Shown: positions 26,439 to 46,727, counted from the stretch's first letter. The stretch: DNA of 64,000 nt from Ignavibacteria bacterium (GCA_031379665.1 JANNFI010000046.1:33899-97898); one strand, 5' to 3'. Notes: a model not told the origin generated them from the letters alone. Translations and numbers: made by a program.

Positions 26439-27662
26439 TTATTTGCGTAAATCATCCCTGCGCCCTGGCCTGCGACCTTCGGGACTGGCCGGCGACGGCT
26501 CCCACGTGGCGGCCGGCAACGCGGCCGACCCGGTCGGGGCGAGGACGATCGAACCTCCGCTGCCCGACCGCACCCAGTAGGCCTTCCCCGGGCGAATCGT
26601 GTCTGCCGCCTGATAACCGTCGTCGTACCCGAAGATCATCCCGGTGATGTGACCGTCCGGAATTTGCACGATCCCATCGACCGGCACCGGCTCGGCGATT
26701 GATCCGAACAGATTCCATCCCGGCTGGAGTTCGATGGTGTCCGGGTGCGTCGCCTGTCCCGTAAACGCCACTGTGTCCATCCCATCGAACCGGATCCAGT
26801 AGCCGGCCCCCGGCACCGCCACCGTCTCGGCGAGGTATCCGCCATCGTACGCGTAGAGCGGCGTCGCGGCGTCCGGGAACAACGCTGTCGCAGATGGTTC
26901 CGCGACGCTGACCGGAAGCGAGACGAGGTTCCATCTTACGTCGTAGGCGACCATCACCACGACGTCTCCTCCCGGGCCTTCCGTTCCGGACGAATCGTTC
27001 TGCGGTTCCGGGTCCCTCCGGATGAAGTCCGCCCCATTCTCGTCCGAGTCCCTCCCGTTCCCTGAAAGTTCGTCAGCACCGCCCGGCGACATCGAGGCGG
27101 CGTCCGAGGCGGCGTCGGCCTTCCTCTCGACGCTCACGGTGTTGCCGGGCGCCGGGGCCGCGCCCGTTCCCTCGAAGAGATTTGCCGTGCCGTAGCCGAC
27201 AAAATCCACGACTCCCGGACCCACCGGCCCCGCGACGGGGATCGAGTCCGAACAGAGCGCGATCTTTCCCGCAGTGGCGGCCAGGGAGATCGCCGCGACG
27301 GCGTCAGGGGACGGCAACGGAGCCGCTCCCCCGCTCCCGGGGTTCGCCTGGACGAGAAAGAAACCGTTTGCGCGAATAGTCCCCGAGAATTTGGCGACGG
27401 CCGTGAACGGTCCACTCCCCCCTCCCCCCTGGTACTGGATGGACCAGCCGCCCATCACGATGTCGGATGCCGTTGGATTATACAACTCGATGAAATCGTG
27501 CGTGAACGGCGCGCCGCTGTTGCCCCCGCCGCCGTAGACCTCGCTGATCACGACGTGGGAGAGCGGCTGGGCGTTGACGGGGAACGTGACGAACAGGAGC
27601 AGCGCGAAAACGAATACACGACCTCCGATACGACGAAATGGATTGCACTGACGCATGGACAC
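26439..27662 (-). CDS. Secreted lamin-tail-domain (LTD) protein with two copies of the WN(L/I)xSLPV/YxYDxGY/PGxxYW(V/I)R module; no T9SS tail.
   Basis: Signal peptide; VISEVYGGGGNSGAPFTHDFIELYNPT matches the LTD signature; module copies at VRWNLVSLPV...YAYDGGY...PGAGYWIRF and PGWNLFGSIA...FGYDDGY...PGKAYWVRS. Confidence 0.6.
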   Translation of the reverse strand: MSMRQCNPFRRIGGRVFVFALLLFVTFPVNAQPLSHVVISEVYGGGGNSGAPFTHDFIELYNPTASDIVMGGWSIQYQGGGGSGPFTAVAKFSGTIRANGFFLVQANPGSGGAAPLPSPDAVAAISLAATAGKIALCSDSIPVAGPVGPGVVDFVGYGTANLFEGTGAAPAPGNTVSVERKADAASDAASMSPGGADELSGNGRDSDENGADFIRRDPEPQNDSSGTEGPGGDVVVMVAYDVRWNLVSLPVSVAEPSATALFPDAATPLYAYDGGYLAETVAVPGAGYWIRFDGMDTVAFTGQATHPDTIELQPGWNLFGSIAEPVPVDGIVQIPDGHITGMIFGYDDGYQAADTIRPGKAYWVRSGSGGSIVLAPTGSAALPAATWEPSPASPEGRRPGRRDDLRK

Positions 27663-27829
27663 CTCCCGGAATGATCTGTTGAACGATGCGGTCCGCGGGA
27701 GGTCCGCCGTGCGGAAAAATCGAACCAGGAATTAAGGGAGGAACAAGATAGGAGGATGACGCCGCCCGGTCAAGGGGGATTCAATGAGAACTCCGTGAGA
27801 AAACGGAAGCCCGGAGTGGGGGTAGTGCC

Positions 27830-30007
27830 CTACCTCACGAGGACGAGGTTTTGCGTCTCGATGTATTCGGTGGTGATGACCATATAGAAATAGACCCCGC
27901 TCGGAACCGGTTGGCCCCCCGAGTCCAGTCCATCCCAACCGGGCGCGCCGTTGTCGCGGCTGTAACTCCCCGCGGGAAACGTCCCTGCGATAATTACCCG
28001 GACCAGCTGCCCGAGCGCATCGTAGATCTGGACACTTACCGGAGACTCCTGGCCGAGGTTGAACGGCAGGAAGGCCACCCCGTCCCGTCGCGGGACGAAC
28101 GGGTTCGGCTGGCTCTGTCCGACGTGATCGACTTTGGCGTTCCGCGGGGGGGGTGGCGGAGGTTCCGGCGGAAGGTCGCCGCCGCCATCGGTTGTGCGCA
28201 GGATGGTGCCGCTCCCGCCGACCACCCATCCGTTAACCGAATCGGTGAAGGAAATGCTGTACATCACCCGGTCGGTCCTCGAGTCGAGTTCGAACCAGTT
28301 GCTCCCGCCGTCGAGTGTCCGCAGGATGGTCCCCGAACCGCCGGTGAGCCAGCCTCTGCGGTGGTCGGTGAAAGTGACGTCGAGGAAATGCACGCTGCCG
28401 CGGGAAGGATTGTTCTGGGACCTCCAGGTGAGGCCGCCATCGGTCGTCTTGATGATCCTGTGAAATTTACCCACGGCCCATCCCGTGTCCCGGTCGGTGA
28501 ACCAGAGGGAGAGCAGTGTGCGCGCGTCCTGGGCGACGGAGTCCCACGTGGCGCCGCGGTTGGTCGTCCGGAATATGGTCGTAAGTTCGTTCAGGTCGCC
28601 GTAGTTTCCGAGGAGCCAGCCGAGCGAGTCGGCGGCGAAGTACATCGCGACATAGGAATAATTGGTGTCGCCGGGGTCGTCGTCATTCCAGGTGTTTCCT
28701 CCGTCGGTGGTTTTCAGCCTGGTCCCCTCCTCCCCGAGCACCCAACCGGTCGAGGCGTCGAGGAAGTAGACCGACGCGAGGGCGCCGCCTGCGCCGAGCG
28801 AGTCGACCGACCAGCTGAACCCGTCGGTCGTCTGGATGACCGTGCCCGCGTCCCCGACTGCCCACCCGGCTGTGGGTGAAGTGAAGAAGACCGAACGAAG
28901 CGACGTTGCCACCGGGGCCGGGTCCTTGATCCAGTTCTGGCCGCCGTTGAGGGTCCGCATCACGGTCCCGAGCGCCCCGACGCACCAGCCGACCTGACCG
29001 TTGAGGAAATAACTGTCGTAGAGGTCGGTAGTGGCGTTGTCGGCGAGCCGTGTCCAGGTCGCGCCGTTGTCGACGGTTTGGGTGATCACGCCGTTGTTGC
29101 CGACGACCCAGCCCCTGCTGAGCGAGGGAAATGCCAGGGCGTTCAGGGTGTTCACCGAGTCGAGGATCTTCGGAATCCAGGAAAAGCCGCCGTTGGTCGT
29201 GGAGAGGAAATACTTGTCGGCCACGGCGTACCCGATCGCCGGGTTGGAAAATTGAACGTCTGATATGGTGGTCGGAACGAGCGTGAACTGCTGGTGCCAG
29301 CTTGTCCCGCCGTCCGACGTCGTCAGCATTGCGCCACCCGTCCCGCCGACCCAGCCTGTGTCCGGCGAGGTGAAGTGGACCGCATGGTAGTCGCGGCCGA
29401 TGATCGTGTCGGGGACGGGAAACCACGAAATGCCCGCGTCGATGGTCTTGATGATGACACCGCCGTCACCCACGGCGTACCCCGTCAGTCCGTTCGCGAA
29501 GGAGATGTCACGCAGAGTGTAGGCCGTACCGGAGGCGACCAGCTGCCACTGCAGGCCGGCATCGGTCGAGCGAAGGATCGCCCCGCCGTCCCCCACGATG
29601 AACCCGGTACCGGAGCCGATGGCAGTCGTCCCGTGGAACGTCCCGACGGTTACGGCCGAGTTGCGGGCGATCCAGTTGGAACCGCCGTCGGAGGTGAGGT
29701 AGATCGAGGCGTCAGATCCGACGACCCATCCCCGGGTCGCTGAGACGAACTGCAAGGCGTGCAGGCTCGTCCCGACGTCGGCGATGTTGGTGCTGGTCCA
29801 CGTCGCGCCGCCGTTCGTCGTCTTTAGGAATGTCGACGCAGAGCCGGCAATCAGGAAAGTGTTGATGTCGATCGCCTGCACGGCCCTGAGGCTGTTCCCC
29901 TGCGGGAGGGGATTCTGCCATTCCCAGCGTTCTGCCTGGGCGGGAAGCGCCGCAACACACGCGAGCGAAAGAGCGAGAATGTGGAGCGTCCGTCGGATCA
30001 TCATCAT
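27830..30007 (-). CDS. Secreted Ycf48/BNR-like beta-propeller protein with T9SS C-terminal domain.
   Basis: Signal peptide; many (T/S)xDGGxxW repeats (TTNGGATW, TSDGGSNW, STDAGLQW...); C-terminal SQPNPFVP...VQIYDALGQLV. Confidence 0.7.
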   Translation of the reverse strand: MMMIRRTLHILALSLACVAALPAQAERWEWQNPLPQGNSLRAVQAIDINTFLIAGSASTFLKTTNGGATWTSTNIADVGTSLHALQFVSATRGWVVGSDASIYLTSDGGSNWIARNSAVTVGTFHGTTAIGSGTGFIVGDGGAILRSTDAGLQWQLVASGTAYTLRDISFANGLTGYAVGDGGVIIKTIDAGISWFPVPDTIIGRDYHAVHFTSPDTGWVGGTGGAMLTTSDGGTSWHQQFTLVPTTISDVQFSNPAIGYAVADKYFLSTTNGGFSWIPKILDSVNTLNALAFPSLSRGWVVGNNGVITQTVDNGATWTRLADNATTDLYDSYFLNGQVGWCVGALGTVMRTLNGGQNWIKDPAPVATSLRSVFFTSPTAGWAVGDAGTVIQTTDGFSWSVDSLGAGGALASVYFLDASTGWVLGEEGTRLKTTDGGNTWNDDDPGDTNYSYVAMYFAADSLGWLLGNYGDLNELTTIFRTTNRGATWDSVAQDARTLLSLWFTDRDTGWAVGKFHRIIKTTDGGLTWRSQNNPSRGSVHFLDVTFTDHRRGWLTGGSGTILRTLDGGSNWFELDSRTDRVMYSISFTDSVNGWVVGGSGTILRTTDGGGDLPPEPPPPPPRNAKVDHVGQSQPNPFVPRRDGVAFLPFNLGQESPVSVQIYDALGQLVRVIIAGTFPAGSYSRDNGAPGWDGLDSGGQPVPSGVYFYMVITTEYIETQNLVLVR

Positions 30008-30008
30008 C

Positions 30009-32309
30009 CTACTTCAACAGGATCATCTTCTTCATTTCGTCCCCGGAACGGTCGCTGGTCGCGATCCGGTAGAGGTAGACGCCCGAGGACAGGTCCATGC
30101 CCCTGACGTCTCGCGAGTCGAAGACCACCGCATGGACTCCCGCCTCGAGCGGTTCGTTGTTCAGGACCGTCGCGACCTGCCTGCCCAGGACGTCAAAGAC
30201 CGTGACCGTCACCGCGGTCTGTCGAAGGAGCGTGAAACTGATCGTCGTCGCAGGGTTGAAGGGGTTCGGATAGTTTGCCGCTTCGGTGACGGAACCGGGG
30301 TGCGCCACCGGCTGCATTTCAAACGGGCCGGGAGGAGTGTTTTTCAGGATCGCGCCGTTCGAACCGACGACCCACGCGTTCTGCGCGTCGAGGACGTGCA
30401 TGCCGAAGAGGACCCTGGAAGTCCCGGACACCTGTTTCTGCCAGAGGGCACCGCCGTTGGTGCTCTTCAGGATCGTGCCCGTATAACCGGAGGCCCAGGC
30501 CGTGTTCGCGTCCACCGCGCCGACGCCCCGCAGCGAGAGGCTCACACCGGAGCTCTGGTTCGACCAGGTGAGGCCGCCGTTGGTCGTCGCGAAGATGGTC
30601 CCGCGGTCGCCGACAGCCCATCCGTGCGTCGCCGAGACGAAATCGACGGCACGGAGCGCCCGCTGGATCGGGGTGGTCTGCGTCGTCCAGGAGGAACCGC
30701 CGTCGGTCGTGGCGATCACGGCGCCCGAGGCCCCGACCGCCCAGCCGGTTTGCGTCGAGACGAAGTCGAGGCTGTATAAATTCTTACCGATGCTCGTCAG
30801 AAGCCGCGCCCAGGTCAACCCGCCGTCGGTCGACTTGAAGATCTTGCCGCGGTTACCGGCGATGAACCCGGTATCAGGATCCGCGAAACGAATCGCGTTA
30901 TACGAGAGCCGGTTCCCCGTCGCTATCGCGGTCCAGCTCGAACCGCCGTTGGTCGTCCTCAGGATCAGTCCCGACCGCCCGACGACCCAACCGAGGTTTG
31001 CATTGATGAAGTGCACGCCCGCAAGGTGTTTCGTGAACCCGGAGCTCTGCTGTGACCAGGTGGCGCCCCCGTTGCTCGTATGGAGAATAATCCCCCTCAC
31101 CCCGACGGCCCATCCGTTCATCGCATCGGGGAAGTGAATCGACGTGAGGTACGACGCGATCGGCGTTTCGTGGTAGATTTTCGTCCAGGTGGCCCCCGCG
31201 TTGGTCGTGCGGTAGATCTGCCCGAAGGTCCCGACGACCCAGCCGGTCGTGGGGGTGACGAATTTCACGGAGGAGAGCGTACGAACGGTGCCGGAGCTGA
31301 GCGGCGTCCACACCCCGCCGGCGTTTGTGGTCTTGAAAATCCGACCCGCTTCCCCGACCGCGTATCCGGTCGAGGAAGAGGTGAAATGCACGTCGGTCAG
31401 GAGACCAGAGCTCAGTGCCGGGAACGTCAGCCAGGTGGTCCCCCCGTTGGACGTCGCGATAACCGTGCCCTGCTGGCCAACAGCGAACCCGAGGAGAGAG
31501 TCCACGAACCAGACCGCGTTCAGGTGCCGGATGGTGCCGCTCGTCTGTAGGCCCCACGTGGCGCCCCCGTCGGTCGTGGCATACACCGTTCCACTGTCAC
31601 CGACGATCCAACCCCGCAATGCGGTGGCAAAGGTGACATCGTTGAACCGTCTCGTTGTCGGCAGGAGGAGCGATTGCCAGCTCGTGCCGCCGTCGAACGT
31701 GTACCTGATCGTACCCGAAGCACCGACCGCCCAACCCGTGTTGGCGTTGAGGAAATGGACGCTCATCAGGGGACGGGCAGTGAACGAATTCTGGGCGATC
31801 CAGGTGATCCCGCCATCGGTAGTCTTGACGATCGCGCCGTTCGTGCCCACCGCGAAGGCGAGATCCGGGGTCACCATGTCCATCGCGAAGAGCGCGCCGG
31901 TCACGCCTCCCGTCTGATATTCGGCGTTCCAACTGGCGCCGGCGTCTCTGGTCCGAACGAAGGTCCCGATCTGGCCCACCGCCATCATCGAATCGGCGTG
32001 GAGCGCGTCGACGCTGTAGAGATGATTGCCGGTCGGCCCGGGGTTCTGCCACTGCCAGGCGGGATTCGTCGTGTCGAAGTAGAGGCGGCTGTCGAACGTC
32101 TCGGCCGAGAATTCCCGCTCGAAATCGAACGACTCATCCTGGAGGAGGAGTTCGGCGTCCTCGGCGCTCAGGTCGTCGTCGGGATCCTCGTCCTGGGCTG
32201 CCGCCGGCAGCATCACGAGCAGCACGAGCAGCGCCGCGGTGAGCCCGCGGAAAAACCACGCACGGCGGACGGCGTCCGCTCCGTGTGAAAGAACCGTCTG
32301 GTTTTTCAT
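30009..32309 (-). CDS. Secreted Ycf48/BNR-like beta-propeller protein, tandem paralog of the previous gene, with T9SS C-terminal domain.
   Basis: Same TxDGGxTW repeat architecture; C-terminal ANYPNPFNPATTISF...VTVFDVLGRQV; its stop is 1 nt from the previous gene's start. Confidence 0.7.
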   Translation of the reverse strand: MKNQTVLSHGADAVRRAWFFRGLTAALLVLLVMLPAAAQDEDPDDDLSAEDAELLLQDESFDFEREFSAETFDSRLYFDTTNPAWQWQNPGPTGNHLYSVDALHADSMMAVGQIGTFVRTRDAGASWNAEYQTGGVTGALFAMDMVTPDLAFAVGTNGAIVKTTDGGITWIAQNSFTARPLMSVHFLNANTGWAVGASGTIRYTFDGGTSWQSLLLPTTRRFNDVTFATALRGWIVGDSGTVYATTDGGATWGLQTSGTIRHLNAVWFVDSLLGFAVGQQGTVIATSNGGTTWLTFPALSSGLLTDVHFTSSSTGYAVGEAGRIFKTTNAGGVWTPLSSGTVRTLSSVKFVTPTTGWVVGTFGQIYRTTNAGATWTKIYHETPIASYLTSIHFPDAMNGWAVGVRGIILHTSNGGATWSQQSSGFTKHLAGVHFINANLGWVVGRSGLILRTTNGGSSWTAIATGNRLSYNAIRFADPDTGFIAGNRGKIFKSTDGGLTWARLLTSIGKNLYSLDFVSTQTGWAVGASGAVIATTDGGSSWTTQTTPIQRALRAVDFVSATHGWAVGDRGTIFATTNGGLTWSNQSSGVSLSLRGVGAVDANTAWASGYTGTILKSTNGGALWQKQVSGTSRVLFGMHVLDAQNAWVVGSNGAILKNTPPGPFEMQPVAHPGSVTEAANYPNPFNPATTISFTLLRQTAVTVTVFDVLGRQVATVLNNEPLEAGVHAVVFDSRDVRGMDLSSGVYLYRIATSDRSGDEMKKMILLK

Positions 32310-32396: not shown

Positions 32397-34976
32397 TTAA
32401 CGTTCAAGCCCGAAGTCGATGTTGTTGACCTGGTCTCCGTCGGGCAGCGCCCTGATTTCGACCGTCCGGGAGATCTCGGTCTGCCGGTAACCGAGTTGAG
32501 CCACCTGACCGGCGTTCAGGGATACGATGTAGCGCCCCGGTTGAAGGGCGAGGAATTCGAATTCCCCGGTCGAAAACGATGTCGCCGTCCTCGGGAACCC
32601 TTCGCGGTCGCCCGACTCGGCCGCTATGGTGATCGTCAGGTTTTCCGCACTGACCATCTGGTCGCCGACGGCGTAGGTCACCCGTCCGCGGATGATGCCG
32701 CCAACGATGATCGGGACTTCAATCTGACGAAAGCGGTTCGGTTCCGAGATCGCCGAAAACGTGCTGAACTTCGGTACCCAGAGCGGGTTGTCGAGGAACT
32801 GCGGTTCGAGCGTCATGAAATACTCCTCGAACGGCAGCGTGTGTTCGAGCAGGAAGCCGCCCGGTGAGTAGCGCACGTAGCTGTTGCCGAAGAGGCTCGA
32901 CGTCTTCAGGCGGCCCTTGGTGATGTATTCCTCGCCCGGGTCGTGGATGTCATTCGCGTTCGCGTCGATGAAGGGCTGGACGACGATGCCGCCGAACCCG
33001 ACTCTGCTCGCCAGGTAATCGAAGTAGAAATCACCCGTTTCCGGCGAGTAGCCCACGGAGCCGCTTACCGACTGCGACGAGCGTAATCCGCCCTCCTCGC
33101 TCGCACCGATGACGGCGCGGACAAGGGCGTATGGGAAATAAAGGACGAACTGGAGCCCGGCGAATGTGTTGTTCGTATAGAAGCTCCGTTCGTAGAAGAG
33201 CTGCAACCAGAAACCGCGGGAGAAGCGCCGGCTGAACTCGAAGCGGGCGTCCCTGAAGCCGCTGTCAAAATGATAGTAGCGCGTGCTCGCCCTGAAGAGG
33301 AACCCTCCCGGGGCCCGGATGCCGAGCGACGCGAAGGTATACGCCTGTTCACGCGTGCCGATGTTGTTGATGTTGTCCCACGTGCGCCGGTGGGAGATCC
33401 TCGGCGAAAAAATTCCGACCTGGCCGCCGAAAGCGATCAATGCCGACCGTTGCCGCCCGGAGGAGAGCAGGGATTGCCTTCCGGCGAGGTCGAGGCTGAG
33501 CCGCCGGTTTCCCGAGCGGACGGGGATGCTGACCGAGGCTGCCGATTCATTCTTGAGATTCCTCGGGTTGTAGAACGGGTTGCGCGCATACCACGAGTAA
33601 CTGGCCGAAGCGCTGGCTGATGAGGGCCAGCTCACCGAGAGGCCCGTCCGCGAGTACGCCGACGGGGCCAGGACGAAATCGCCGGTGAGGATGTCGGTGA
33701 GCCTCGACGTCGCGGTGATCATCGGGTGATACCGCTTCGAAGTCTTCTCGTAGTAATCCACCCCTGCGCCGATGGTCAATCGCGAATTGACGCCCCACTG
33801 TACAACACCGTTGCCGTATCCCTCGTCGAATCGCTGCCGGTAGATGCCCCCGGCAAGGCTGTATTCCACGGTCCCCGGCGGTATCATCTCCGGAGGAACG
33901 ATGATCCGGTACTGGGTGGTCCGCTCGAGCCCGAAGGCGTCGTACGACCTGACGTCGTACATCGAGACGCCGTACGTGACGATCGACGGGAAGGAGTATT
34001 CGTTGACCGCCGACTTGGCCTGGTAGTCGACGAGGGCGCCGCCGTAGTACAGATCGGCTGCGCCGCCTTCCGGGAGCGGACCGCTGATGTTGTCGGAAGT
34101 GAAGTAGAACCGGCGGGGCGCCGGCCGGTTCGTGATTTCTGCGCCGAAGACGGACGAGGGCATCAGCCCCGTGGTAAGGATGTCCCCGATGGTGATCTGG
34201 CGGACGTACGAATTATTGAGGAATGCCCACCGCAGGCGGCTAAGGACGTCATCCCACGTGAGGGCCCGACCAAACGTGCCGAACACCCTCGTGTCCATAT
34301 CGCCCCCCAGGATGTGGTTCCCCACCTGAACCGCGAAGGTGCGGCGCGGCTGGCCGAACTGCGTGAGCTGGGACGTGAGGGAGTAACCAATCCGTCCGAA
34401 ACCGAACGGGATGAAGGACCGGTCGATGGTGACTTCGGGATCGGGGAGCTGGCCCAGGGTGCGGCGTCGTTTTCTGGCTAACTCCCTGTCTCGCTCCTGG
34501 TAGACGGGCAGACGGTGCTTCGTTTTCAGTGAGACCTCAAGCCTACGGGGGTTATACCTGAGCGCGATGCCGAAGATCTCGTTGTACCGGTCCTCGAAGA
34601 GGAAGAGGTCGTCGGTGCCGCGGAGCAGGTCGTCCTGCGAGAGAGCGATGGATCGCCCTTCGATGATGGCGACGAGAGCAGTGCCATCGATCGAATAGGG
34701 ATTGTCGCTCCGGAGGAAGGCGCCTTCCGCCCTGCCGGTCGGGAGGTCGAGCACGACGGGAATCTTGACGAAATCGAAGAGGCTGCGGATCGGGATGTAT
34801 GCGCGTTCACCACGCAGCATGATCTGGAGATCCACCCTGAGACCGCCCTGCAGATCGAGCCCGACCGGGACGAGCATCGTGGAATCGCCGGGAGCATCGG
34901 TCTGCGCGACAACGCCTCCGGCCAGCGACAGCACCGTCGTAATCAGGAGAAAAATCCTCAGGACTCTGGCACTCAT
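32397..34976 (-). CDS. Large outer-membrane protein, candidate fimbrial usher-like pore (859 aa).
   Basis: Signal peptide; long Gly/Tyr/Ser/Arg-rich beta-strand-like middle region; C-terminal small beta-sandwich-like domain (PGRYIVSLNAG). Sits immediately downstream of a PapD-like chaperone gene. No usher motifs could be verified by eye. Confidence 0.4.
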   Translation of the reverse strand: MSARVLRIFLLITTVLSLAGGVVAQTDAPGDSTMLVPVGLDLQGGLRVDLQIMLRGERAYIPIRSLFDFVKIPVVLDLPTGRAEGAFLRSDNPYSIDGTALVAIIEGRSIALSQDDLLRGTDDLFLFEDRYNEIFGIALRYNPRRLEVSLKTKHRLPVYQERDRELARKRRRTLGQLPDPEVTIDRSFIPFGFGRIGYSLTSQLTQFGQPRRTFAVQVGNHILGGDMDTRVFGTFGRALTWDDVLSRLRWAFLNNSYVRQITIGDILTTGLMPSSVFGAEITNRPAPRRFYFTSDNISGPLPEGGAADLYYGGALVDYQAKSAVNEYSFPSIVTYGVSMYDVRSYDAFGLERTTQYRIIVPPEMIPPGTVEYSLAGGIYRQRFDEGYGNGVVQWGVNSRLTIGAGVDYYEKTSKRYHPMITATSRLTDILTGDFVLAPSAYSRTGLSVSWPSSASASASYSWYARNPFYNPRNLKNESAASVSIPVRSGNRRLSLDLAGRQSLLSSGRQRSALIAFGGQVGIFSPRISHRRTWDNINNIGTREQAYTFASLGIRAPGGFLFRASTRYYHFDSGFRDARFEFSRRFSRGFWLQLFYERSFYTNNTFAGLQFVLYFPYALVRAVIGASEEGGLRSSQSVSGSVGYSPETGDFYFDYLASRVGFGGIVVQPFIDANANDIHDPGEEYITKGRLKTSSLFGNSYVRYSPGGFLLEHTLPFEEYFMTLEPQFLDNPLWVPKFSTFSAISEPNRFRQIEVPIIVGGIIRGRVTYAVGDQMVSAENLTITIAAESGDREGFPRTATSFSTGEFEFLALQPGRYIVSLNAGQVAQLGYRQTEISRTVEIRALPDGDQVNNIDFGLER

Positions 34977-34995
34977 CGGACTTCGGACTGGGTGG

Positions 34996-35832
34996 TTATG
35001 GAATGGTCAGTTGGTATGTGAAGCGAACGGCATCCGTTTTCAGCCGGTACTGCGCAGGGACGCCTGGTCGCATATTGTCGACGTTGAGTTCCAGCACGTA
35101 CGATCCCGCGGGAATATCCTTCACGTCCATCGTGATCGGGTAGACCATGTCGCGGTAGACGGCGATGTGGTGATCGTGCGACTTCATCAACCGCCCGTCG
35201 TCGTTCCTCAGGAAACATCGGATGGTGCCCCAAAAGGAAGCGTTCCCGAGGCGGGAAAGATCGACTCCCATCTTCAGCATTCCGGTGTCCACGACCGATG
35301 TGATGCCGTGGACCTTGATGCCGGAGCTGACTGAACCTGTCCGGACCTGGAGCGGAACATCAACCTGCGACACGAATTCCATTCGCATCCGCACGTTGCC
35401 TCCCGGGGTCTGAGGGGGCGCCGCCGTGCGCTGTTTCGAACTCACGATCACCCTCGCCCAGTATTCGCCGGACACCAGACCGACCGGAGTCTGCACCATC
35501 ACCCTCACCACCTGCGATTCACGAGCGTTGAGGACAAATCGCTGGGGGTACGCCGTGAGCCAGGTGGCCGCGCTGGGATCCTGTGGGGTGGGTTCTTCGA
35601 GGTAATTGATGTAAAAATTTCCACTGTCGTTGACGAGCGGGTAGCCGTATCTGAAGTCGAGCCAGATTTCCTGCCGCGTTTCCGTCGGATTCGAGACAGT
35701 GATGGCTACGGAGCGGTTGGGGGAATTGATGAACAGCGCCTGGGGATATACGGAGACGGAAGCATCAAGTCGGGACCACGCAAGGGCCGAGAGAACGAGA
35801 AGGAACAGGATTCCCGACTTAGCTTTGGGCAT
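34996..35832 (-). CDS. Periplasmic PapD-like pilus chaperone candidate.
   Basis: Signal peptide; N-terminal VSVYPQALFINSPNRSVAITVSNPTETRQEIWLDFRY resembles the chaperone N-domain pattern (V.P.R..........V.N......W); 278 aa, typical length for two Ig-like domains. Confidence 0.45.
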   Translation of the reverse strand: MPKAKSGILFLLVLSALAWSRLDASVSVYPQALFINSPNRSVAITVSNPTETRQEIWLDFRYGYPLVNDSGNFYINYLEEPTPQDPSAATWLTAYPQRFVLNARESQVVRVMVQTPVGLVSGEYWARVIVSSKQRTAAPPQTPGGNVRMRMEFVSQVDVPLQVRTGSVSSGIKVHGITSVVDTGMLKMGVDLSRLGNASFWGTIRCFLRNDDGRLMKSHDHHIAVYRDMVYPITMDVKDIPAGSYVLELNVDNMRPGVPAQYRLKTDAVRFTYQLTIP

Positions 35833-36030
35833 TTTGCGATGAATGAAAAATATTACGAATAACTGACAGGGTAGAATAATATAAAAAGTTTTTAGTCAAT
35901 AATCTAGAGCCCGTCCGGCATTTTGGACGTTTATTCGCGGTTTTTGCTCTGTCAGAGGATGGAATTACGAAAAACGGGTAAGGCTTGAATCAGGCTGATT
36001 TCGCCAACGGGTGTGGCCCGAAAAATAAGC

Positions 36031-36071
36031 AAAAAGGCACCGAGGCCAGTGAAGGCCTTCGGTACCTTTTT
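36031..36071 (-). terminator. Rho-independent terminator downstream of the pilin-like gene.
   Basis: Imperfect hairpin GGCACCGAGGCC...GGCCTTCGGTACC flanked by A-run/T-run (reads as bidirectional). Confidence 0.5.
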
Positions 36072-36096
36072 GCCTTTGAAGCAGGATCAGTTCAGC

Positions 36097-36645
36097 TTAG
36101 TTGCCGGTGTAGACAGCCGAGCCGATGATCTGGGCAGTGTAGCCGCCCGCGAACGCCGTCGTCGGAACCGTCACCGTCGCGCCAAGGAACAGACCGCTGG
36201 CCGCGCCGCCGCCGATCGTGACCGTCACCGCGCTACCCGTCACCGGGCCCGCATCGGCAAACGCCACGCCGGGATCGTTGTCGTAGTTCCAGCCGTAGGT
36301 CCAGTTGCTCAGCGGCAGGTTGCCGTTCTCGTCGTCGGAGGTGAACGCGCCGGGAAGGATCATGGTCACCAGGACATCAGTACCCGGGTTGCCGTCCACT
36401 TCGAAACCGATCGCATCGACCACGACGCCAGCGCCTTCGCCGGGGCCGGGGGGCTCTTTGAAGCCGCTCGGGGTCACGGTATAGGTATTTCCGGGCGAGA
36501 AAAGGCCCCAGTCGCCGTCGACGTTGACGAGAACCAGTTCGCTCTCGACGGTGGCCGTCACGAGGATCTCGGCTTCGCTCTGAGCTAATGCGCTGCTCAG
36601 ACCGACAACCAACAGTAAGGCAAGTACAAACATGAAGCGTTTCAT
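36097..36645 (-). CDS. Small secreted beta-rich protein, candidate pilin-like subunit (DUF4402 / spore-coat-U-like).
   Basis: Signal peptide (MKRFMFVLALLLVVGLSSALAQS); 182 aa; Gly/Thr/Val-rich; first gene of a three-gene unit followed by a strong terminator, as expected of a major subunit. Confidence 0.35.
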   Translation of the reverse strand: MKRFMFVLALLLVVGLSSALAQSEAEILVTATVESELVLVNVDGDWGLFSPGNTYTVTPSGFKEPPGPGEGAGVVVDAIGFEVDGNPGTDVLVTMILPGAFTSDDENGNLPLSNWTYGWNYDNDPGVAFADAGPVTGSAVTVTIGGGAASGLFLGATVTVPTTAFAGGYTAQIIGSAVYTGN

Positions 36646-36796
36646 GTTAACTCCTGAAATGAATGTGTGTGAGTTGGTGGATTAGAGAAGTGTAGGTTTT
36701 AATACTGACGTTAAATTCTGCGTTAAAACACTGTTGGGACTCCCTATCCTGGTTGCCACGCACCTCGCGGTACGTGGCAACCGTCGGGGAAAAACA

Positions 36797-38749
36797 TTAC
36801 TTCATCAGGACCATCTTCTGGACTGACTGGAACTGCCCGTCGTTGACGTTGATCTGGTAGTAGTACACGCCGGTGGCCAGTCTCGCGCCGTCCAGCTCCA
36901 CCCAGTTTTCGCCCGCGCTGAATTCCTCGCGGTCGGCGAGTGTCGCCACCACCTGGCCCAGCATGTTGTAGACCCTCAGCGTCACGATCGCGTCTTCCGG
37001 GATCGTGAATTCGATGGTCGTCGTCGGGTTGAACGGGTTCGGGTAGTTCTGCGAGAGCCCGAACACCTTCGGCACTTCGTAGATCGATGAGTAGTCACCC
37101 GGTGTGGCCACTGGCGCATTGTTCGGACCCGAGGCCTCAAAGATGTCCGAGAGCGCCACCGGCCCGATACCCGTGGCTACAGTGTTGGTTCCGCCCCACG
37201 AGGCGGTATCGAAGGCGCCGGAGAATTCCATGTTCAGCGTTTCGAGGAAGTTTGCCAGACGGACGTAGGTCCACGAGTTGGTCGGGAGGATAGGAAGACC
37301 GCCGTAGCACGCAAGGGCCTTGTCCGCCGAATCCGCGATGGCATCGACCGTCTGTCCCACCCACGACGTCTCCGGTCCGACATACACCAGGTCACGGAAC
37401 CCAGTCGATGGAGTGTGGCCGAGCGAGCTGGCACCCATGTTGAACTTCAGCGCGATCAGCTGGCCGAGCAGCTTATTGCCCATCATCGGCGAATCCTTGT
37501 AACGGACCGTTTTGTCAGGACCGAGGGCCTTCAGCGTCTTGATGTTCGCCTTGCTCTTGATCGTGTCCAGGCAGTACGCCGTTCCGTTTTGCAGGATCGT
37601 CACATTCTTGAACTTATAGAGTGTCTTGGTCACGTCCTTCCACTTCGGGGCGCTGACGTGGTGGATGATCGGCTTGCCCTTCTCGTTCACCCCGATCTGG
37701 CCTGGCAGACCGACACCCCCGCCCAGACCGAGGCTCAGGTTCAGCGGCTGCAGGTACATTTCGTCGCCGATATTGTTCACGTTCGGCTTCGGCAGGCGCA
37801 GAGTGTTGACAAACACCAGCGTTCCGCCGGTGGTCTTGTCATCGTTGAACCATCCCTTGCCCTTCATCGCCTTGCCCTTATTGCCGTTGCCTTCGACGAG
37901 CACGCCCTGGCCGGCTACGAGCACCGGTCCGGGAATCGTGACGTCGTACTTTTTCAATCCCGAAATGTTGATCGGAACGTGGCCGTCCGGATCACCGGGG
38001 AAGGAGATGCTGCCTTCGACGACCTTGTCGAATTCAACGTGGATTTTTGTTCCGCCGCCGACCGGTGAGGTCATTGTCGTGGTGAAATCCACCGAAATCG
38101 GCTTCGGCTTCTCGAACTTGCCGACCTTGCCTTTTGCGTCGGACGCCATGGCGATCGAATCCGCCGTAAACGTACGCATCATCGAGCCGTCGCCGACCAC
38201 GATGTCCACGAAACTGCCCGAAAGGGTGCTGAACGTAGCGTGGGTGAACGAGGTTTGCGCGCTCATGTCAACCGTCGTGAAGAGGAAACCGCCGAAACCG
38301 TCGGTCATATAGAACCCGCCACCGCTCACCGCGCCGAGCCCGGCGGGCCAGGAGAGGGTGATCGGTATTCCGTCCGGATCAGTCCGCCGGAACTTGAGGC
38401 GGTAGACATCCTTCTGTCCGTCGCTCACCAGGTTGCGAATGTCGACCGCGACGCCCTGTCCGAAGGCGAGGCCGCCCGTCGGATCGGTGAGGCGCACATC
38501 GGGTGCCTGGTCGGCGCCGCTCGGCGGAACGGGCGGAAGCTCATTCTCGACGAGGATCGGGCTGATGCTGTCACCGATCGCGTTGGTCGCGACGATGTAC
38601 TTCCCGATGACGACCGAGTCCTTCCATCCAGTCCCGTCCTCAGCGTAAATCTTGACGCTGAAGTTGGTCTGGCTCCACGCTGATGTGGCCCCCAGAAGAA
38701 TGAGGCACACCATCACCATATAGAGCGTAAAACTTTTAGAGATATTCAT
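36797..38749 (-). CDS. Secreted protein with T9SS C-terminal domain (650 aa).
   Basis: Signal peptide; ELPPVPPSG motif; shared LGQLIALKFNMGASS module; C-terminal LSQNYPNPFNPTTTIEF...LRVYNMLGQVV. Confidence 0.7.
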   Translation of the reverse strand: MNISKSFTLYMVMVCLILLGATSAWSQTNFSVKIYAEDGTGWKDSVVIGKYIVATNAIGDSISPILVENELPPVPPSGADQAPDVRLTDPTGGLAFGQGVAVDIRNLVSDGQKDVYRLKFRRTDPDGIPITLSWPAGLGAVSGGGFYMTDGFGGFLFTTVDMSAQTSFTHATFSTLSGSFVDIVVGDGSMMRTFTADSIAMASDAKGKVGKFEKPKPISVDFTTTMTSPVGGGTKIHVEFDKVVEGSISFPGDPDGHVPINISGLKKYDVTIPGPVLVAGQGVLVEGNGNKGKAMKGKGWFNDDKTTGGTLVFVNTLRLPKPNVNNIGDEMYLQPLNLSLGLGGGVGLPGQIGVNEKGKPIIHHVSAPKWKDVTKTLYKFKNVTILQNGTAYCLDTIKSKANIKTLKALGPDKTVRYKDSPMMGNKLLGQLIALKFNMGASSLGHTPSTGFRDLVYVGPETSWVGQTVDAIADSADKALACYGGLPILPTNSWTYVRLANFLETLNMEFSGAFDTASWGGTNTVATGIGPVALSDIFEASGPNNAPVATPGDYSSIYEVPKVFGLSQNYPNPFNPTTTIEFTIPEDAIVTLRVYNMLGQVVATLADREEFSAGENWVELDGARLATGVYYYQINVNDGQFQSVQKMVLMK

Positions 38750-42327: not shown

Positions 42328-43407
42328 TCAGAACCCCACCAAGAGGGTAATGACGTGATTCCCCCCAAAAAAATCCGCCGGACGATACGCATAATCAACC
42401 TGAATTATCAGGTTTTGAACGGTTTCGTGGACTCCCACGCCGAACGCCGGACCGAAGATTGATTGGTTTCCTTCTGACTCGGTGGAATAATCGTACCCTC
42501 CCCTGACGAAAAATCGCTCCCGGTACCCGAATTCGGCACCAAATTTGTATTGGTCGTCGGCGAAATTATTATTCCGGAAAAGGGTCGACACCCCGATGTC
42601 GATCGGTTCGCTCAGGTGGTGGAGATATCCCAGGCCCACTTCGATGGTCGACGGCAGGTCGGCCGATGCCGCCTCAACCTTGTAGTTCGTTTCCGGCCGG
42701 TCTGCACTGACGACGACGCCCGTGCGGTCGAGCCCCTCCCCCTCGTAGACGAGTTTCGGTCCGATGTTCCTGATGACCACGCCCACACTCAGGCCTTCAA
42801 TCCCGCCGAGGCGGGCGTACTGCACCCCCCCGGTGAACGCGATGCCGGTCGCGGAGACCTCGGCCATTTTTTCATAGATGAAGTTTGCGGAGATGCCGAC
42901 GGCGATCTGGTCCGACATTCGGCGCGAAAACGTCCCGCCGACGACGAGGAATGTCGGCGAGATCACCTCGCCGGTTCCGTCGGGGAACAGTTCCGTCGTC
43001 ACCGGGATCTCCCCCACCGAGAGCGCCTGGATGGTGACGCCGAGATACGCCCCTCCGGAAAGGCTGGTGCCCGCCGCAAAATAATCGACGCCGATGTCGG
43101 CGAGGTAGGTCATGTGCGAGAACAGGAGTTCCGACGACCGGTCGGTCGTGACGAGGCCCGCCGGATTCCAGGAGATGGCCTCGATCCCCGAGATCGAGGA
43201 AAGGATCGAGCCCCCGAGCGAGATCGAGCGGGCGCCCAGCGGTATGGAGAGCTGCATCGCCGAAGCCGAGCCGACCTTGTCCCCGCGCCCTGCGAGCGTG
43301 GTCGACTGGAAAGCGAGCGACCCCACGATCGACCAAACGAGCATCCAGGCCGCTGCCATCGCCAGCCCGGCGCCGGCCCTTCGGCGGTATCGACAGGTCG
43401 TGGTCAT
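42328..43407 (-). CDS. porV: T9SS outer-membrane channel protein PorV (PorV/PorQ family, FadL-like).
   Basis: N-terminal GARSISLGGSILSSISGIEAISWNPAGL matches the conserved PorV N-terminal motif; about 360 aa, beta-barrel-like; its start overlaps the stop of the upstream large gene, as in known porU-porV operons. Confidence 0.65.
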   Translation of the reverse strand: MTTTCRYRRRAGAGLAMAAAWMLVWSIVGSLAFQSTTLAGRGDKVGSASAMQLSIPLGARSISLGGSILSSISGIEAISWNPAGLVTTDRSSELLFSHMTYLADIGVDYFAAGTSLSGGAYLGVTIQALSVGEIPVTTELFPDGTGEVISPTFLVVGGTFSRRMSDQIAVGISANFIYEKMAEVSATGIAFTGGVQYARLGGIEGLSVGVVIRNIGPKLVYEGEGLDRTGVVVSADRPETNYKVEAASADLPSTIEVGLGYLHHLSEPIDIGVSTLFRNNNFADDQYKFGAEFGYRERFFVRGGYDYSTESEGNQSIFGPAFGVGVHETVQNLIIQVDYAYRPADFFGGNHVITLLVGF

Positions 43408-46400
43408 CGGAGTTGCAGGGTTTGTTGTTCCGGCACGATCATCAGCTTCAACGTCTTTGAGCCGAGGTCGACGCCCGTCTCGTCCTTCATCTCGATGTGC
43501 GCCACGAACAGGCCCCCCCCGACAGGCAACCCGTTGTGGTTGTTCAGGTCCCAGGTCGTGAACTGCGAGGCGTCGTCCTTCTCGATCGTGCGGACCAGGT
43601 CCCCCCCGAGGTTGAAGATTCGGATGACAGCGCGCACCGGTAGATGGCTGAACGTGATGTAGTGCTCGAAGCGGTCCGTCTCAGCCGAGTTGAATCCGTA
43701 GTACGGGTTCGGGAAAACGTTCACCTTCTCGACGGCCTGCCGGGCCGCGCTTACGTCGTTGGTGCTGACCGACGCGGGAGTGAAGACTTTCTCGTCGCCG
43801 TTGCGGACGAGCTTATACCGCTCGAACCTGACGACGGTCCCGGGCGGCGCGGGAACGTCGTCCAGGTCGAGGTCGACGAAGTACACCTTCCATACGGCGT
43901 TCTTGACGGAGTAGGTCCCGCCGTTGACCCAGAGGAACCCCTTCACCCTGGGACCCTCCACCGGCTCCCAGGGGATGTTGTCGTTGTAGGTGCCGGCGAT
44001 GGAACCGGTACCGAGCCTCTGGCTGTCCGATACAATGGTGAGCGGATAGAACTCTTCGAGCGTCTGGCCGTTGTATTCCCTGTCGAGCAGGACGCTCGCC
44101 CTCCAGAGGCTGTCGGAACCACTCCCGGTGATCACCGTGTAGATCTGCCGGAGGATGGTGTCCCCGCTCACCACGCCGGTCTGCCAGGCCGTGAACGGCA
44201 CGCGGGTCCACCGCGAAGAGGGCGCGGTGGGGGCGAGCATCAGCGACCAGCTGGAGTCACCGAACCGGAGCTCCACGTCGACGTCGAGGGGGTTGCCCCC
44301 GAGGATCGTGTCCAGATACGAGGACCCGGCCCCCACCGTCATATAATTGAGTCCGGGGTTCGGCTGGTTGAAGACGGGGCTACGGAGCGAATCGCCCCCC
44401 GAGACCGTTTCGTAGACGCCCTTCAGACCGTAAGGGGGTGAATGACACTCGACCGTGAACCCCCTCTCCACCACCCTGGCCGCGGCGCTGTCCATCGAAA
44501 TGCCCCGCAGCAGCGTATCGCCGGCCGTCGAATCGACCAGGTCCCACCAGGGCTTGGTGAACAGGTCGATCAGCTGGCTGGGGCTCCTGTGGTAGAGGAT
44601 TTTATAAATATGCCCGTCAGGCCGTGTCGGGTCGTAGTACGTGACGTCGACCGTCGCCCCGTTGGTACCAACGATGTCATAGGCATCGGAAACCACCTCG
44701 CCGGCGGAATACGGATATACCACGCCCGGGTTCGGCGAGTGTGGTGTGACCGGGAGGATGACCGGCGCGGAATAGATCCTCTGGTCGAAGAAGGCGACGT
44801 TTGGGTTGAAGGCGCGCGAACGGAGCGCGAAGTAATATTTCTGCCCGTTGACCAGGGGCCGGTCCCTGACGTAATCGTGGGTGATGTCGAGGAACCGCGG
44901 CCAGAGGACGTTGAACGCCGGGAGCGGCACCCAATCCTCGAAAGGCGAGTCGGCCAGGGGAAGCTGGAAGAGTTCGAAGTTCTCGAAACGGAACCCTCTT
45001 GAGGAGTACGATTCGACGGCGGCGAGCGCCGCGGCGTCCGATTCCCAGTCCAGTATGATTTTATCGTCGAGCTCGATCGGCCGCACCGTCGGCGATGGGA
45101 TGGTGGCCGGCGCGGTGAAATTGACGAGGAAGAGGTCCCTCGCGGCACCGACGCTCTCACGGACCCGGGGAATCCCCGAACGATTATCGGTCCCCACCCC
45201 CCCGCCGAGGGCGAACACTACCTCCTGCGTATCCCCTCGCGCGAGCGAGAACGGGCTGGTGGAGAGGAGGAGCCGCCTGTCCCCCTTGGGGATCTCCGTC
45301 CCGTCGACCCAGCCGGCGAAGGTTTCCGGATCCCCGGTCAGCTCGAACTTCGTGCACGACTGCGTCAGCGGATCGATGAAACACTCGGGGAATTCGGAGA
45401 AGACCCCCTCATACCCGTTCATCAGGTACCACATCGTGATGAGTCCCCGAAAATCGCCGAGTCTGGCATCACCGTTCCTCACATCCCCGTCGAGGTAGGT
45501 AAACGAGCCCACCGGCTGGTTCGCATACCCGTCGACCATTCCGCCGTCCCAGTACGCCGTCGATCCGGGGCTCTCCACCCTGGGACCCTGGAGGAGACCG
45601 TATCCGACCACGGAAGGCACCGTCCCGACCTTGTCGAACTCGAAGTCCGACACTTCAGCGTTATACGCGTAGCCGAGCTGGTGAGGGGCATCGTAACCGG
45701 CGTAGTCGTCTGAATAGTTGCCGATGTCGGCGTCGACCCACTTCGAAATCACCATCGCGTCGATTCGCGCGTTCGCCGGGGTCCGCGCGTTCCCCTTGTA
45801 GATGAGCCGGTATTTCTGATAGACGACGTCACCAAGTCTCCCCGGACGGTTGTACGCCCAGCAGGTGACCTGCATCTCGAGGCCGATCGGGAGGGATCCG
45901 TACAGGTTCCGGACGGCCGCGCTGTCTAGGTCGTTGGCGACGAACCAGAGGACCTGGTCGGCGCCGGCGAGTCCCGGTTCGTCGCTGACGGAGTCGTTCA
46001 GCGCGCCGGGGTTCGGCTGATAGCCGGGCGTCCCGTTCCGTTCGTAGTACGGCGCGCCCTTGTCCCAGGGCCATTCGAGCCAGTCCCGCTTGTACTGATC
46101 GCGCAGCCTCGCCAGGTCGGCGTCTGTGACCAGGACGTCGGGGATGCCGTAGGTGTCCGACGCGTCGCGGCGGAGGTCTCCGGTCGCCCAGTCGGAACGG
46201 ATCCTGAAAATCCTCACGTCGGGACTCGAGGGGTTCTCCCTCACACCCGGCTGGACGATCCGTCCCGGGACGGTCGCGGACTGAAACGATTGCCCGCCGA
46301 TCCTGAGAAACTCCTCCTCGCCGTCGTTGACGAAACCACCCCAGAGAATCCCCTCCCTCGACACCACTGTCGAGCTCCCCCGAGGGAAGACGACGCCGGG

Positions 46401-46634: not shown

Positions 46635-46727
46635 TTGCAGCGGGACCGTACCGACGATGAGTAGTGCAAGGGGAGAAACGTTGTACAATGTACGGAAAAC
46701 GGGGACTGATTTCAAGCGTTCAGGGCA

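Follow-up and report, generated by a model that had tools for sequence, protein, structure and literature searches.

Chaperone-usher (CU) pili have been studied almost exclusively in Proteobacteria. Single-subunit CU systems in which the chaperone has a long F1-G1 loop (Saf, Caf1) form polymers, the pap and fim operons contain a terminator after the major subunit gene, and in Myxococcus the Mcu chaperone-usher system handles spore-coat protein U. The type V pili of Bacteroidia (FimA/Mfa) are a pilus of the same superphylum as the bacterium studied here and are built by strand exchange; their pilins are protease-processed lipoprotein precursors, and their assembly is not known to involve a chaperone or usher.

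Here we analyzed a 64,000-nucleotide stretch of DNA from an Ignavibacteria bacterium (GCA_031379665.1 JANNFI010000046.1:33899-97898), referred to throughout as the window. We propose that three of its genes encode a complete, minimal and divergent non-classical (archaic/alternative-like) CU pilus-assembly system, and we place the probability of this reading at roughly 0.85.

Organization of the locus

The three genes are all located on the minus strand, with the subunit gene (182 aa, 36097..36645) followed by the chaperone gene (278 aa, 34996..35832) and the usher gene (859 aa, 32397..34976). The first-pass annotation of this DNA placed three co-directional open reading frames at exactly these coordinates, and read them as a chaperone-usher-like fimbrial operon that formed one transcription unit and was embedded in an array of T9SS cargo genes. 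The fimbrial reading agrees with the folds and homology of the usher and the chaperone, with a DUF4402-related subunit and with a conserved gene order, and the flanking genes do carry Por_Secre_tail, as expected of a cargo array. The transcription unit is upheld in part: the genes are co-directional, and those encoding the chaperone and the usher are separated by a gap of 19 nt, but a 264-nt spacer containing a strong terminator-like hairpin splits off the subunit gene. All three proteins have a hydrophobic, signal-peptide-like N-terminus, and this segment forms a helix in both proteins that were modelled, i.e., the chaperone and the usher.

The hairpin resembles an intrinsic terminator with a U-tract (36021..36075, minus strand), is located directly 3′ of the subunit gene, and is bigger than the element originally placed at 36036-36066, with a 21-bp stem at 36027-36075 followed by AUUUUU. 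It folds with an energy of -39.8 kcal/mol (z = -6.95), a value matched by none of 200 shuffled sequences. No Rfam family was found for this hairpin. Twelve other loci were folded, and 11 of them have a long hairpin predicted just 3′ of the subunit gene, with sequences that differ; the twelfth, L002, has only a short stem at this position. The probable role of the hairpin is that of an attenuator keeping subunit levels high relative to the machinery, with expression past it arising either from attenuated read-through or from a second promoter.

Gene order and distribution among relatives

The order subunit(s)-chaperone-usher is present in the window and in 16 of 16 distinct related loci with a contig extending upstream of the chaperone gene, at usher identities of 25-90%. 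These loci are from Ignavibacteria MAGs, other Bacteroidota MAGs and Gemmatimonadaceae (L025). The distant relatives contain 2-6 paralogous subunits, like typical CU operons, and DUF4402 proteins and window-type subunits hold the same place upstream of homologous chaperone and usher genes. The usher family comprises approximately 2,000 clusters (50% identity) at E ≤ 1e-30, some of its members are from Kryptonia and Balneolaceae, and SPOR-tailed ushers exist within it. In the 20 family representatives sampled, the source names were 'hypothetical', 'SPOR domain-containing' or 'FtsN'. The carriers that the genome scan identified are uncultured MAGs without exception; a species that has been cultured, Fodinibius saliphilus, has one homolog (WP_138430346.1), which makes the prediction testable.

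The usher and the chaperone

The 859-aa protein had been proposed to be an usher, and both structure and profile comparison bear this out: each of the top 18 Foldseek matches of its model is to FimD/PapC, the best at E 1.4e-25, and a 64-sequence profile of its family aligns with four E. coli ushers over 509 columns (Prob 98%, E 2.8e-13), spanning the barrel, the plug and the beginning of CTD1. The model has the architecture of an usher, with all of the following encoded on the minus strand: a periplasmic N-terminal domain (NTD; aa 33-152, 34521-34880); a 24-strand barrel (aa 191-644, 33045-34406), which DSSP resolves into 6 + 18 strands with a 6-strand insert at the position of the FimD plug; this plug (about aa 285-360, 33897-34124), located between strands 6 and 7; and two periplasmic C-terminal domains, CTD1 (aa 661-758, 32703-32996) and the transthyretin-like, CarboxypepD_reg-like CTD2 (aa 760-858, 32403-32699). 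The NTD of homologs is Cu_amine_oxidN1-like and does not resemble PapC_N, so recruitment of the chaperone-subunit complex may differ from that of known ushers.

The CarboxypepD_reg-like domain is the sole Pfam match of the 859-aa protein and is common in SusC-like receptors, as might be expected if this protein were a different outer-membrane protein (a TonB-dependent/SusC-like receptor, a porin, LptD or Omp85) and the three genes were unrelated neighbours. We consider this to be exceedingly improbable. The structural matches and the alignment with E. coli ushers rule out another outer-membrane protein family, the best matches being FimD/PapC and not the TonB-dependent receptors or OMP85 proteins named by the first-pass annotation as competing assignments, and the protein does not show the combination of an N-terminal Plug (PF07715) and a 22-strand TonB_dep_Rec barrel that characterizes TonB-dependent/SusC-like receptors.

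The model of the 278-aa protein (pLDDT 86) shows the two-domain PapD-like fold that had been claimed for it, with Ig-like domains (domain 1, about aa 26-165; domain 2, about aa 170-277) in a boomerang arrangement and with a long, low-confidence F1-G1 loop (aa 135-153). SafB is the first of its structural matches, and CsuC, YadV, EcpB and FimC are also at the top of the list. Comparison using hhalign gave E 1.7e-5 against E. coli chaperones and E 4.6e-5 against EcpB, at profile-profile probabilities of just 69-78% and with the EcpB alignment covering domain 1 only.

In CU chaperones, an invariant proline kinks a strand of domain 1, and in non-classical chaperones a 'super-conserved' strand-F arginine (CsuC/EcpB Arg89) binds the C-terminal carboxylate of the subunit (PMC4654587). 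The key residues in the window chaperone are P96, R127 and R164. P96 shows no variation in sets of 30 and 22 homologs, and aligns with the proline of FimC 'TPPLF' and EcpB 'TPASL'. R127 is located within a strand of the model (122-134); 20 of 22 homologs have Arg at this position and the other 2 have Lys, and R127 aligns with R109 of the EcpB precursor (mature Arg89). The positions aligned by hhalign with the Arg8/Lys112 pair of classical chaperones (A32 and V159-L161, in a register uncertain by 1-2 residues) are non-basic and non-conserved. An earlier guess that this system is archaic or non-classical is therefore supported by the chaperone, where Arg127 is present and the Arg8/Lys112 pair is absent. 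A motif comparison, made without tool alignment, puts the invariant Trp201 ('GNASFW') at the position of EcpB Arg148 ('GNATLR'), and the domain-2 anchor tyrosine may correspond to either Y226 or Y245, which are both nearly invariant.

No curated Pfam/NCBIfam usher, PapD chaperone or pilin model matches the three window proteins at threshold, including Pfam Usher (PF00577), PapD_N (PF00345) and Fimbrial (PF00419). Among homologs, PapD_N matches 8 of 30 chaperones (best E 0.007), and Usher matches 1 of 10 ushers (E 0.01).

The subunit and a predicted assembly pathway

The subunit comprises a signal peptide (aa 1-21, 36583-36645), a putative N-terminal donor strand, QSEAEILVTATVES (aa 22-35, 36541-36582), and, at its C-terminus, the F-strand motif AGGYTAQIIGSAVYTGN (aa 166-182, 36100-36150), all encoded on the minus strand. 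Against Pfam DUF4402 (PF14352) it scores 15.8 bits (E 0.023), below the gathering threshold of 25.2 bits. Matches to DUF4402 are present in 19 of 29 subunit family members (best E 4.3e-5), subunits from homologous loci reach the threshold (34.9 bits in L025; 26.9 and 25.2 bits in L002), and hhalign of the window subunit family with DUF4402 subunits encoded at a distant homologous locus gives E 2e-13. Since the window protein is below the Pfam threshold, with homologous-locus subunits above it and linked by this alignment, the relation is one at the superfamily level: on sequence comparison, the window subunit is a divergent relative of DUF4402, in line with the DUF4402-like subunit originally guessed. 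SCPU (PF05229) matched none of the 29 + 10 subunits scanned, and we found no mention of DUF4402 in the literature searched.

The Gly-x11-Tyr motif with alternating hydrophobics found at the C-terminus of pilins is present in AGGYTAQIIGSAVYTGN. [quoted passage not shown] Y169 is invariant throughout the subunit family, and the L025 subunit ends in ...GRYEGTFTMSAVYQ. The N-terminal segment ILVTATVES is conserved and also shows alternating hydrophobics. In addition, the window subunit contains a clade-specific insertion (FKEPPGPGEG), ends in YTGN and, as it is devoid of Cys, lacks a lipobox.

The locus has a single subunit gene and no tip-adhesin-like gene, and these features, together with the clade-specific PPGPGEG insertion, would suit a system in which the chaperone and the usher-like barrel serve to export the 182-aa protein in monomeric form or as a non-fibrous surface coat rather than as a pilus, resembling the Mcu case. 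We think this unlikely, as the subunit retains the pilin C-terminal motif and has a conserved alternating-hydrophobic N-terminal segment typical of donor strands, and as the top match of the chaperone is SafB, from the Saf/Caf1 group of single-subunit systems that do polymerise.

[quoted passage not shown] The chaperone-subunit complex would dock on the 859-aa usher with its plug-gated 24-strand barrel, where each following subunit would insert its N-terminal strand in place of the chaperone strand, leading to polymerisation and to extrusion of a thin homopolymeric fibre via the usher pore, without ATP. The hairpin 3′ of the subunit gene would cause the subunit to be made in large excess over the machinery.

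Association with T9SS cargo genes

Downstream of the usher gene, and also on the minus strand, are three genes encoding a 766-aa tandem BNR/Ycf48-like propeller with a T9SS C-terminal sorting domain (30009..32309; Pfam/NCBIfam), which starts 87 nt past the usher gene; a conserved 725-aa BNR propeller with a T9SS sorting domain (27830..30007), 1 nt further on; and a conserved 407-aa lamin-tail-domain (LTD) protein (26439..27662; Pfam LTD). In all Ignavibacteria-type loci of sufficient length (usher identity 30-90%), the usher gene is immediately followed by a homolog of the first propeller. The propeller pair is followed in turn by an LTD-containing homolog in L009, L011, L012, L016, L017, L019, L020, L021 and L028. 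In Ignavibacteria-type loci the trio, the two T9SS BNR propellers and the LTD protein form a conserved block. The gene upstream of the subunit encodes a 650-aa T9SS cargo protein and has its own terminator-like hairpin (36797..38749, minus strand); it is conserved in many, not all, loci, being present in L010, L011, L013, L015, L016 and L018 and replaced in L009, a relative with 90% identity.

This setting within a T9SS cargo array, the retention of the block with both CTD-bearing propellers and the LTD protein over usher identities of 30-90%, and the fusion of some subunit homologs to a T9SS CTD could all be taken to mean that the trio serves T9SS as accessory or cargo-handling proteins, for example as an outer-membrane shuttle for the neighbouring propellers, and is no independent pilus pathway. 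We regard this as very unlikely. The T9SS sorting domain (Por_Secre_tail/TIGR04183) found in the neighbours is absent from the subunit, chaperone and usher, none of which matches a T9SS component model; locus L027 contains a subunit-chaperone-usher module without propeller genes; a homologous module is also present in Gemmatimonadaceae (L025); and the fold matches are specifically to FimD/PapC and to CU chaperones.

Returning to a CU pilus, we infer from the conserved block that the fibre probably cooperates with the T9SS propeller and LTD proteins at the surface. A more speculative proposal, which we hold only tentatively and think has perhaps one chance in a few, is that the fibre, the two BNR double propellers and the LTD protein are one surface apparatus in which two outer-membrane export pathways cooperate; for example, the fibre might be bound or decorated by T9SS-anchored propellers, or might display their substrate. 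The T9SS-fused subunit homologs do not have the N-terminal segment and contain an extra beta-like segment past the domain, and DUF4402 would occur in two export forms, one G-strand-less and usher-polymerised, the other self-complemented and fused to a T9SS sorting domain.

Comparison with known systems

These findings place a complete predicted CU system in Ignavibacteria, other Bacteroidota and Gemmatimonadota, with an usher family that standard annotation misses. For DUF4402, a concrete function can now be predicted, that of pilin in these CU systems, and the non-classical CU type is widened to include a different usher NTD, a transthyretin-like CTD2 and SPOR-tailed ushers. The conserved linkage to T9SS cargo suggests an unexplored interplay of two surface-assembly pathways of the FCB group.

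Unlike type V pili, the window system has a subunit without a lipobox, and both a chaperone and an usher. Compared with the archaic (sigma) Csu system of A. baumannii (CsuA/B-CsuC-CsuD), it has one subunit rather than four, and this subunit is DUF4402-like, not SCPU, and contains no Cys; its usher differs from archaic ushers in the Cu_amine_oxidN1-like NTD and the transthyretin-like CTD2, and where archaic chaperones have a domain-2 Tyr/Arg anchor, the 'GNAS-F-W' motif puts an invariant Trp at the EcpB Arg148 position by motif comparison. With E. coli ECP (EcpA-EcpB-EcpC), the chaperone aligns over domain 1 only, and the match between the usher and EcpC is weak (E 1.2e-3). The classical systems (Fim, Pap, and the FGL systems Saf/Caf1) belong to a different phylum, identity is about 12%, and the window proteins have no Usher, PapD_N, PapD_C or Fimbrial Pfam match at threshold; the chaperone has no conserved counterpart of Arg8/Lys112, and the disulfide-forming C44 and C84, invariant in E. 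coli pilins, have no equivalent in the Cys-less subunit. Nevertheless, the classical systems provide the best structural templates, FimD/PapC for the usher and SafB for the chaperone, and share with the window the barrel and plug topology, the pilin Gly-x11-Tyr motif, the long chaperone F1-G1 loop of Saf/Caf1 and, as in pap and fim, a terminator-like hairpin after the subunit gene.

Structure and profile comparisons support a chaperone-usher trio

The window contains three co-directional open reading frames on the minus strand, encoding a 182-aa subunit (36097-36645), a 278-aa chaperone (34996-35832) and an 859-aa usher (32397-34976), at exactly the coordinates reported in the first-pass annotation, which had proposed a chaperone-usher (CU)-like operon inside an array of type IX secretion system (T9SS) cargo genes. 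All three proteins have signal-peptide-like hydrophobic N-termini, and the genes around the trio lie on the same strand and encode T9SS cargo with Por_Secre_tail/TIGR04183 domains. Curated libraries and PDB sequences were nearly empty for this system: the chaperone matched nothing in Pfam or NCBIfam; the usher matched nothing in NCBIfam and showed only a C-terminal CarboxypepD_reg-like domain in the curated libraries; and the subunit scored 15.8 bits against Pfam DUF4402, below the cutoff of 25.2. Comparison of PDB sequences with all three proteins, as single sequences and as first-round profiles, returned nothing relevant, and a diverse usher profile produced matches through C-terminal Ig-like or transthyretin-like domains only. 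We therefore tested the three proteins by structure and by profile-profile comparison.

A model of the usher built from a 19-sequence alignment (pLDDT 85.4) was searched with Foldseek against all PDB chains, and the first 18 matches were FimD or PapC (E 1.4e-25 to 1e-12, approximately 900 columns), with non-usher barrels appearing only at E values of at least 7e-6. The alternatives that the 859-aa protein is a TonB-dependent receptor, a porin, Omp85 or LptD are excluded. The secondary structure of the model comprises 6 long strands, a 6-strand insert (approximately aa 285-360) and 18 long strands, the predicted layout of a 24-strand barrel whose plug sits between strands 6 and 7, and two beta-sandwich domains follow the barrel. 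A narrow profile of the usher family gave no significant hhalign match to FimD alone. A profile broadened to 64 sequences, including distant representatives, aligned with the E. coli ushers FimD, HtrE, SfmD and YraJ over 509 columns (Prob 98%, E 2.8e-13), covering query positions 189-737 and placing the insert on the FimD plug. The proposal that this protein is an usher is supported.

The chaperone model, built from 30 sequences (pLDDT 85.6), contains two beta-sandwich domains, with a low-confidence loop (135-153) between strands 122-134 and 154-165, in agreement with the two-Ig-domain, PapD-like fold suggested previously. The values listed for its comparison with known chaperones were 14.5 and 177 for SafB, 14.1 and 141 for CsuC, 14.1 and 178 for YadV, 13.8 and 129 for EcpB, 13.1 and 172 for FimC, 12.8 and 184 for CfaA, and 11.6 and 175 for PapD. 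A narrow family profile was again insignificant in hhalign against FimC alone, and significance required profiles of greater diversity. The alignment to four chaperones of E. coli spanned 204 columns (E 1.7e-5, Prob 78%), with the motif YPQRFVL...ESQVVRV on TPPLF...LRI and GEYWARV on ESLFWMNV. Against EcpB alone (E 4.6e-5), the invariant residue P96 fell on the proline that is invariant across chaperones. Residue R127 is Arg in 20 of 22 sequences and Lys in the other 2, and aligns with R109 of the EcpB precursor (mature Arg89). In the window chaperone alignments, no conserved basic residues correspond to the classical Arg/Lys pair, which agrees with the pattern of non-classical chaperones, described in PMC4654587 as having no analogue of this pair. 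One chaperone homolog carries the IMG label 'P pilus assembly chaperone PapD'.

For the subunit we found 82 homologs, and 19 of the 29 sampled matched DUF4402 (best E 4.3e-5). The subunits beside distant usher homologs score as bona fide DUF4402 proteins (34.9 bits at locus L025; 26.9 and 25.2 bits at locus L002), and subunits of this type align with the window subunit family at E 2e-13. The DUF4402-like part of the original subunit claim is supported at superfamily level. The C-terminus ...AG-x-Y-x-x-x-I-x-x-A-x-Y-(T/N)-G-(N/S/T) is kept across the window family and the distant subunits; compared with a profile built from 11 pilins of E. coli, it aligns end-to-end on the pilin F strand (E 3.3e-4, Prob 38%), with its Gly and Tyr on the invariant Gly169 and Tyr181 of the pilins. 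Conservation also extends to the mature N-terminus, QSEAEILVTATVES, which alternates in the manner of a donor strand. The subunit is predicted to be missing its G strand. The subunit has no Cys, and therefore neither a pilin disulfide nor a lipobox, and the lack of a lipobox led to rejection of a type V pilin identity. Identities as T9SS cargo and as an SCPU-type subunit were also rejected, the latter by the SCPU-subunit test of the sigma clade, in which 29 + 10 subunits were scanned without a match.

Two subunit homologs, P0157 (L026:8001-8906) and P0161, have a T9SS C-terminal sorting domain (CTD) as fusion partner. Both are without the N-terminal 'ALVTATVE' strand, and an additional beta-like stretch, MVAIFDTVVYRTLDVVEI, separates their pilin-like domain from the CTD. 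No chaperone or usher gene adjoins P0157. These fusions may represent a natural, self-complemented version that leaves the cell through the T9SS.

Distribution and conservation of the system

Scanning species-representative genomes yielded 17 loci, all in MAGs and the closest 90% identical, with carriers labelled Ignavibacteria, Ignavibacteriae, Bacteroidota, Bacteroidetes, 'Chlorobiaceae', 'Chitinophagales' and Gemmatimonadaceae. In HMM searches of all ORFs, each locus whose contig was long enough gave the order subunit-chaperone-usher. In distant loci (usher approximately 25-27% identical), 2-6 paralogous subunits precede the chaperone and usher, and each of the three proteins is homologous to its window counterpart. 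An exhaustive search with the usher profile matched 7,510 cluster representatives at an E cutoff of 1e-3, of which 2,022 also passed 1e-30; the best 150 matches were all full-length, and the weakest may reflect the shared C-terminal domain alone. Source names among 20 sampled representatives are 'hypothetical', 'SPOR domain-containing' and 'FtsN', and the named sources are Ignavibacteriota, Bacteroidota, Candidatus Kryptonia, Balneolaceae and the cultured Fodinibius saliphilus. A tblastn search of PLSDB plasmids with a bona fide DUF4402 subunit and with the usher found nothing except one CarboxypepD_reg domain match.

Many usher homologs, 1000-1488 aa in length, have C-terminal extensions carrying a SPOR (peptidoglycan-binding) domain (P0077, at L027:2690-7090, P0204, P0256, P0286, P0300 and others). 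Their annotations read 'SPOR domain-containing protein' or 'cell division protein FtsN', and WP_138430346.1 of F. saliphilus is one of them. Among the 21 contigs read, those of L002, L003 and L004, which carry the distant usher P0076, each stop 314 nt past the usher gene, suggesting a repeat or assembly break point directly downstream. Frameshifts, pseudogenes or assembly errors account for two split genes: the usher of L019 (1015-3872), present as two overlapping ORFs, and the first propeller gene of the 90%-identical relative L009 (10647-12949), also present as two ORFs.

Putative transcription signals and the adjoining T9SS cargo genes

Directly 3' of the subunit gene is a terminator-like hairpin with a U-tract (36027-36075; 21-bp stem, -39.8 kcal/mol, z = -6.95), which none of 200 shuffles equalled in folding and which contains the shorter hairpin originally noted at 36036-36066. 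A 264-nt spacer lies between the subunit and chaperone genes, and the gap between chaperone and usher is 19 nt. Of 12 further loci folded, 11 are predicted to carry a long hairpin of differing sequence 3' of the subunit gene, and L002 has only a short stem; no Rfam families were found in the operon. A GC-rich hairpin with a perfect 10-bp stem (36755-36790; GGTTGCCACG...CGTGGCAACC) sits immediately 3' of the 650-aa cargo gene upstream and suggests that the subunit gene starts its own transcript.

In Ignavibacteria-type loci, the trio is followed closely and co-directionally by genes for two BNR/Ycf48-like propellers (approximately 720-790 aa) with T9SS sorting domains, and then for a lamin-tail domain (LTD) protein; in the window these three genes occupy 26439-32309, the propellers measuring 766 and 725 aa and the LTD protein 407 aa. 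The resulting six-gene block is common to the window and to L001, L009-L012, L016-L022 and L028, over usher identities from 90% to approximately 30%. In L018 the usher gene shares 4 nt with the first propeller gene, and in the window no terminator-like site was found between the two. Conservation of the upstream 650-aa and 1057-aa cargo genes is less consistent, and they are replaced in L009. Since the block is conserved in Ignavibacteria-type loci and propellers are absent from the distant multi-subunit locus L027, the CU core is an autonomous module that has become fixed beside particular T9SS cargo in this lineage. Synteny makes a functional link between the trio and the cargo plausible.

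Further upstream are two minus-strand ORFs without a Pfam match (42328-43407, 359 aa; 43404-46715, 1103 aa) that overlap by 4 nt. In L009, L015 and L016, the region upstream of the cluster likewise encodes homologs of the 359-aa protein.

Comparison with known chaperone-usher systems

The fold and homology of both usher and chaperone are shown, as is the organisation of the genes. The assembly steps would, by analogy with established CU biology (PMC4654587, PMC9452303), begin with export of the subunit by Sec. The chaperone would capture it via donor-strand complementation, R127 anchoring the carboxylate, and hand it over to the usher, where donor-strand exchange with the N-terminal strand of the next subunit would lead to extrusion of a thin homopolymer. 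Attenuation at the hairpin could provide the subunit in excess.

Archaic CU systems are found in a wide range of phyla (PMC9452303), and a CU system outside Proteobacteria is therefore not in itself revolutionary. In the library searched, we found no paper mentioning DUF4402, and no relevant paper on chaperone-usher systems with Ignavibacteria, Bacteroidota or Bacteroidetes. What appears to be new is a large FCB/Gemmatimonadota CU clade that is invisible to curated models and has DUF4402 as its pilin, together with the altered end domains of its usher and the conserved coupling of the trio to T9SS cargo.

The system fails tests for the classical families (Pfam thresholds, the Arg/Lys pair and the pilin disulfide). 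Unlike classical ushers, the window usher has an N-terminal domain (aa 33-152; 34521-34880) that does not align by hhalign with the N-domains of E. coli ushers; in several homologs this domain matches Pfam Cu_amine_oxidN1 rather than PapC_N (25.2 bits in homolog P0170, cutoff 24.2), and the second C-terminal domain in this usher family is CarboxypepD_reg/SdrD_B-like. The first-pass annotation had suggested an archaic/sigma-type system. The chaperone supports a non-classical type, with R127 on EcpB Arg89 and no conserved basic counterpart of the classical pair in the alignments; an SCPU-type subunit is rejected. Of the general CU features, those examined are all present in the trio, as is the key non-classical feature of the chaperone, and the layout of the distant multi-subunit loci is that of a classic CU operon. 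By analogy, the trio would work like a non-classical CU pathway.
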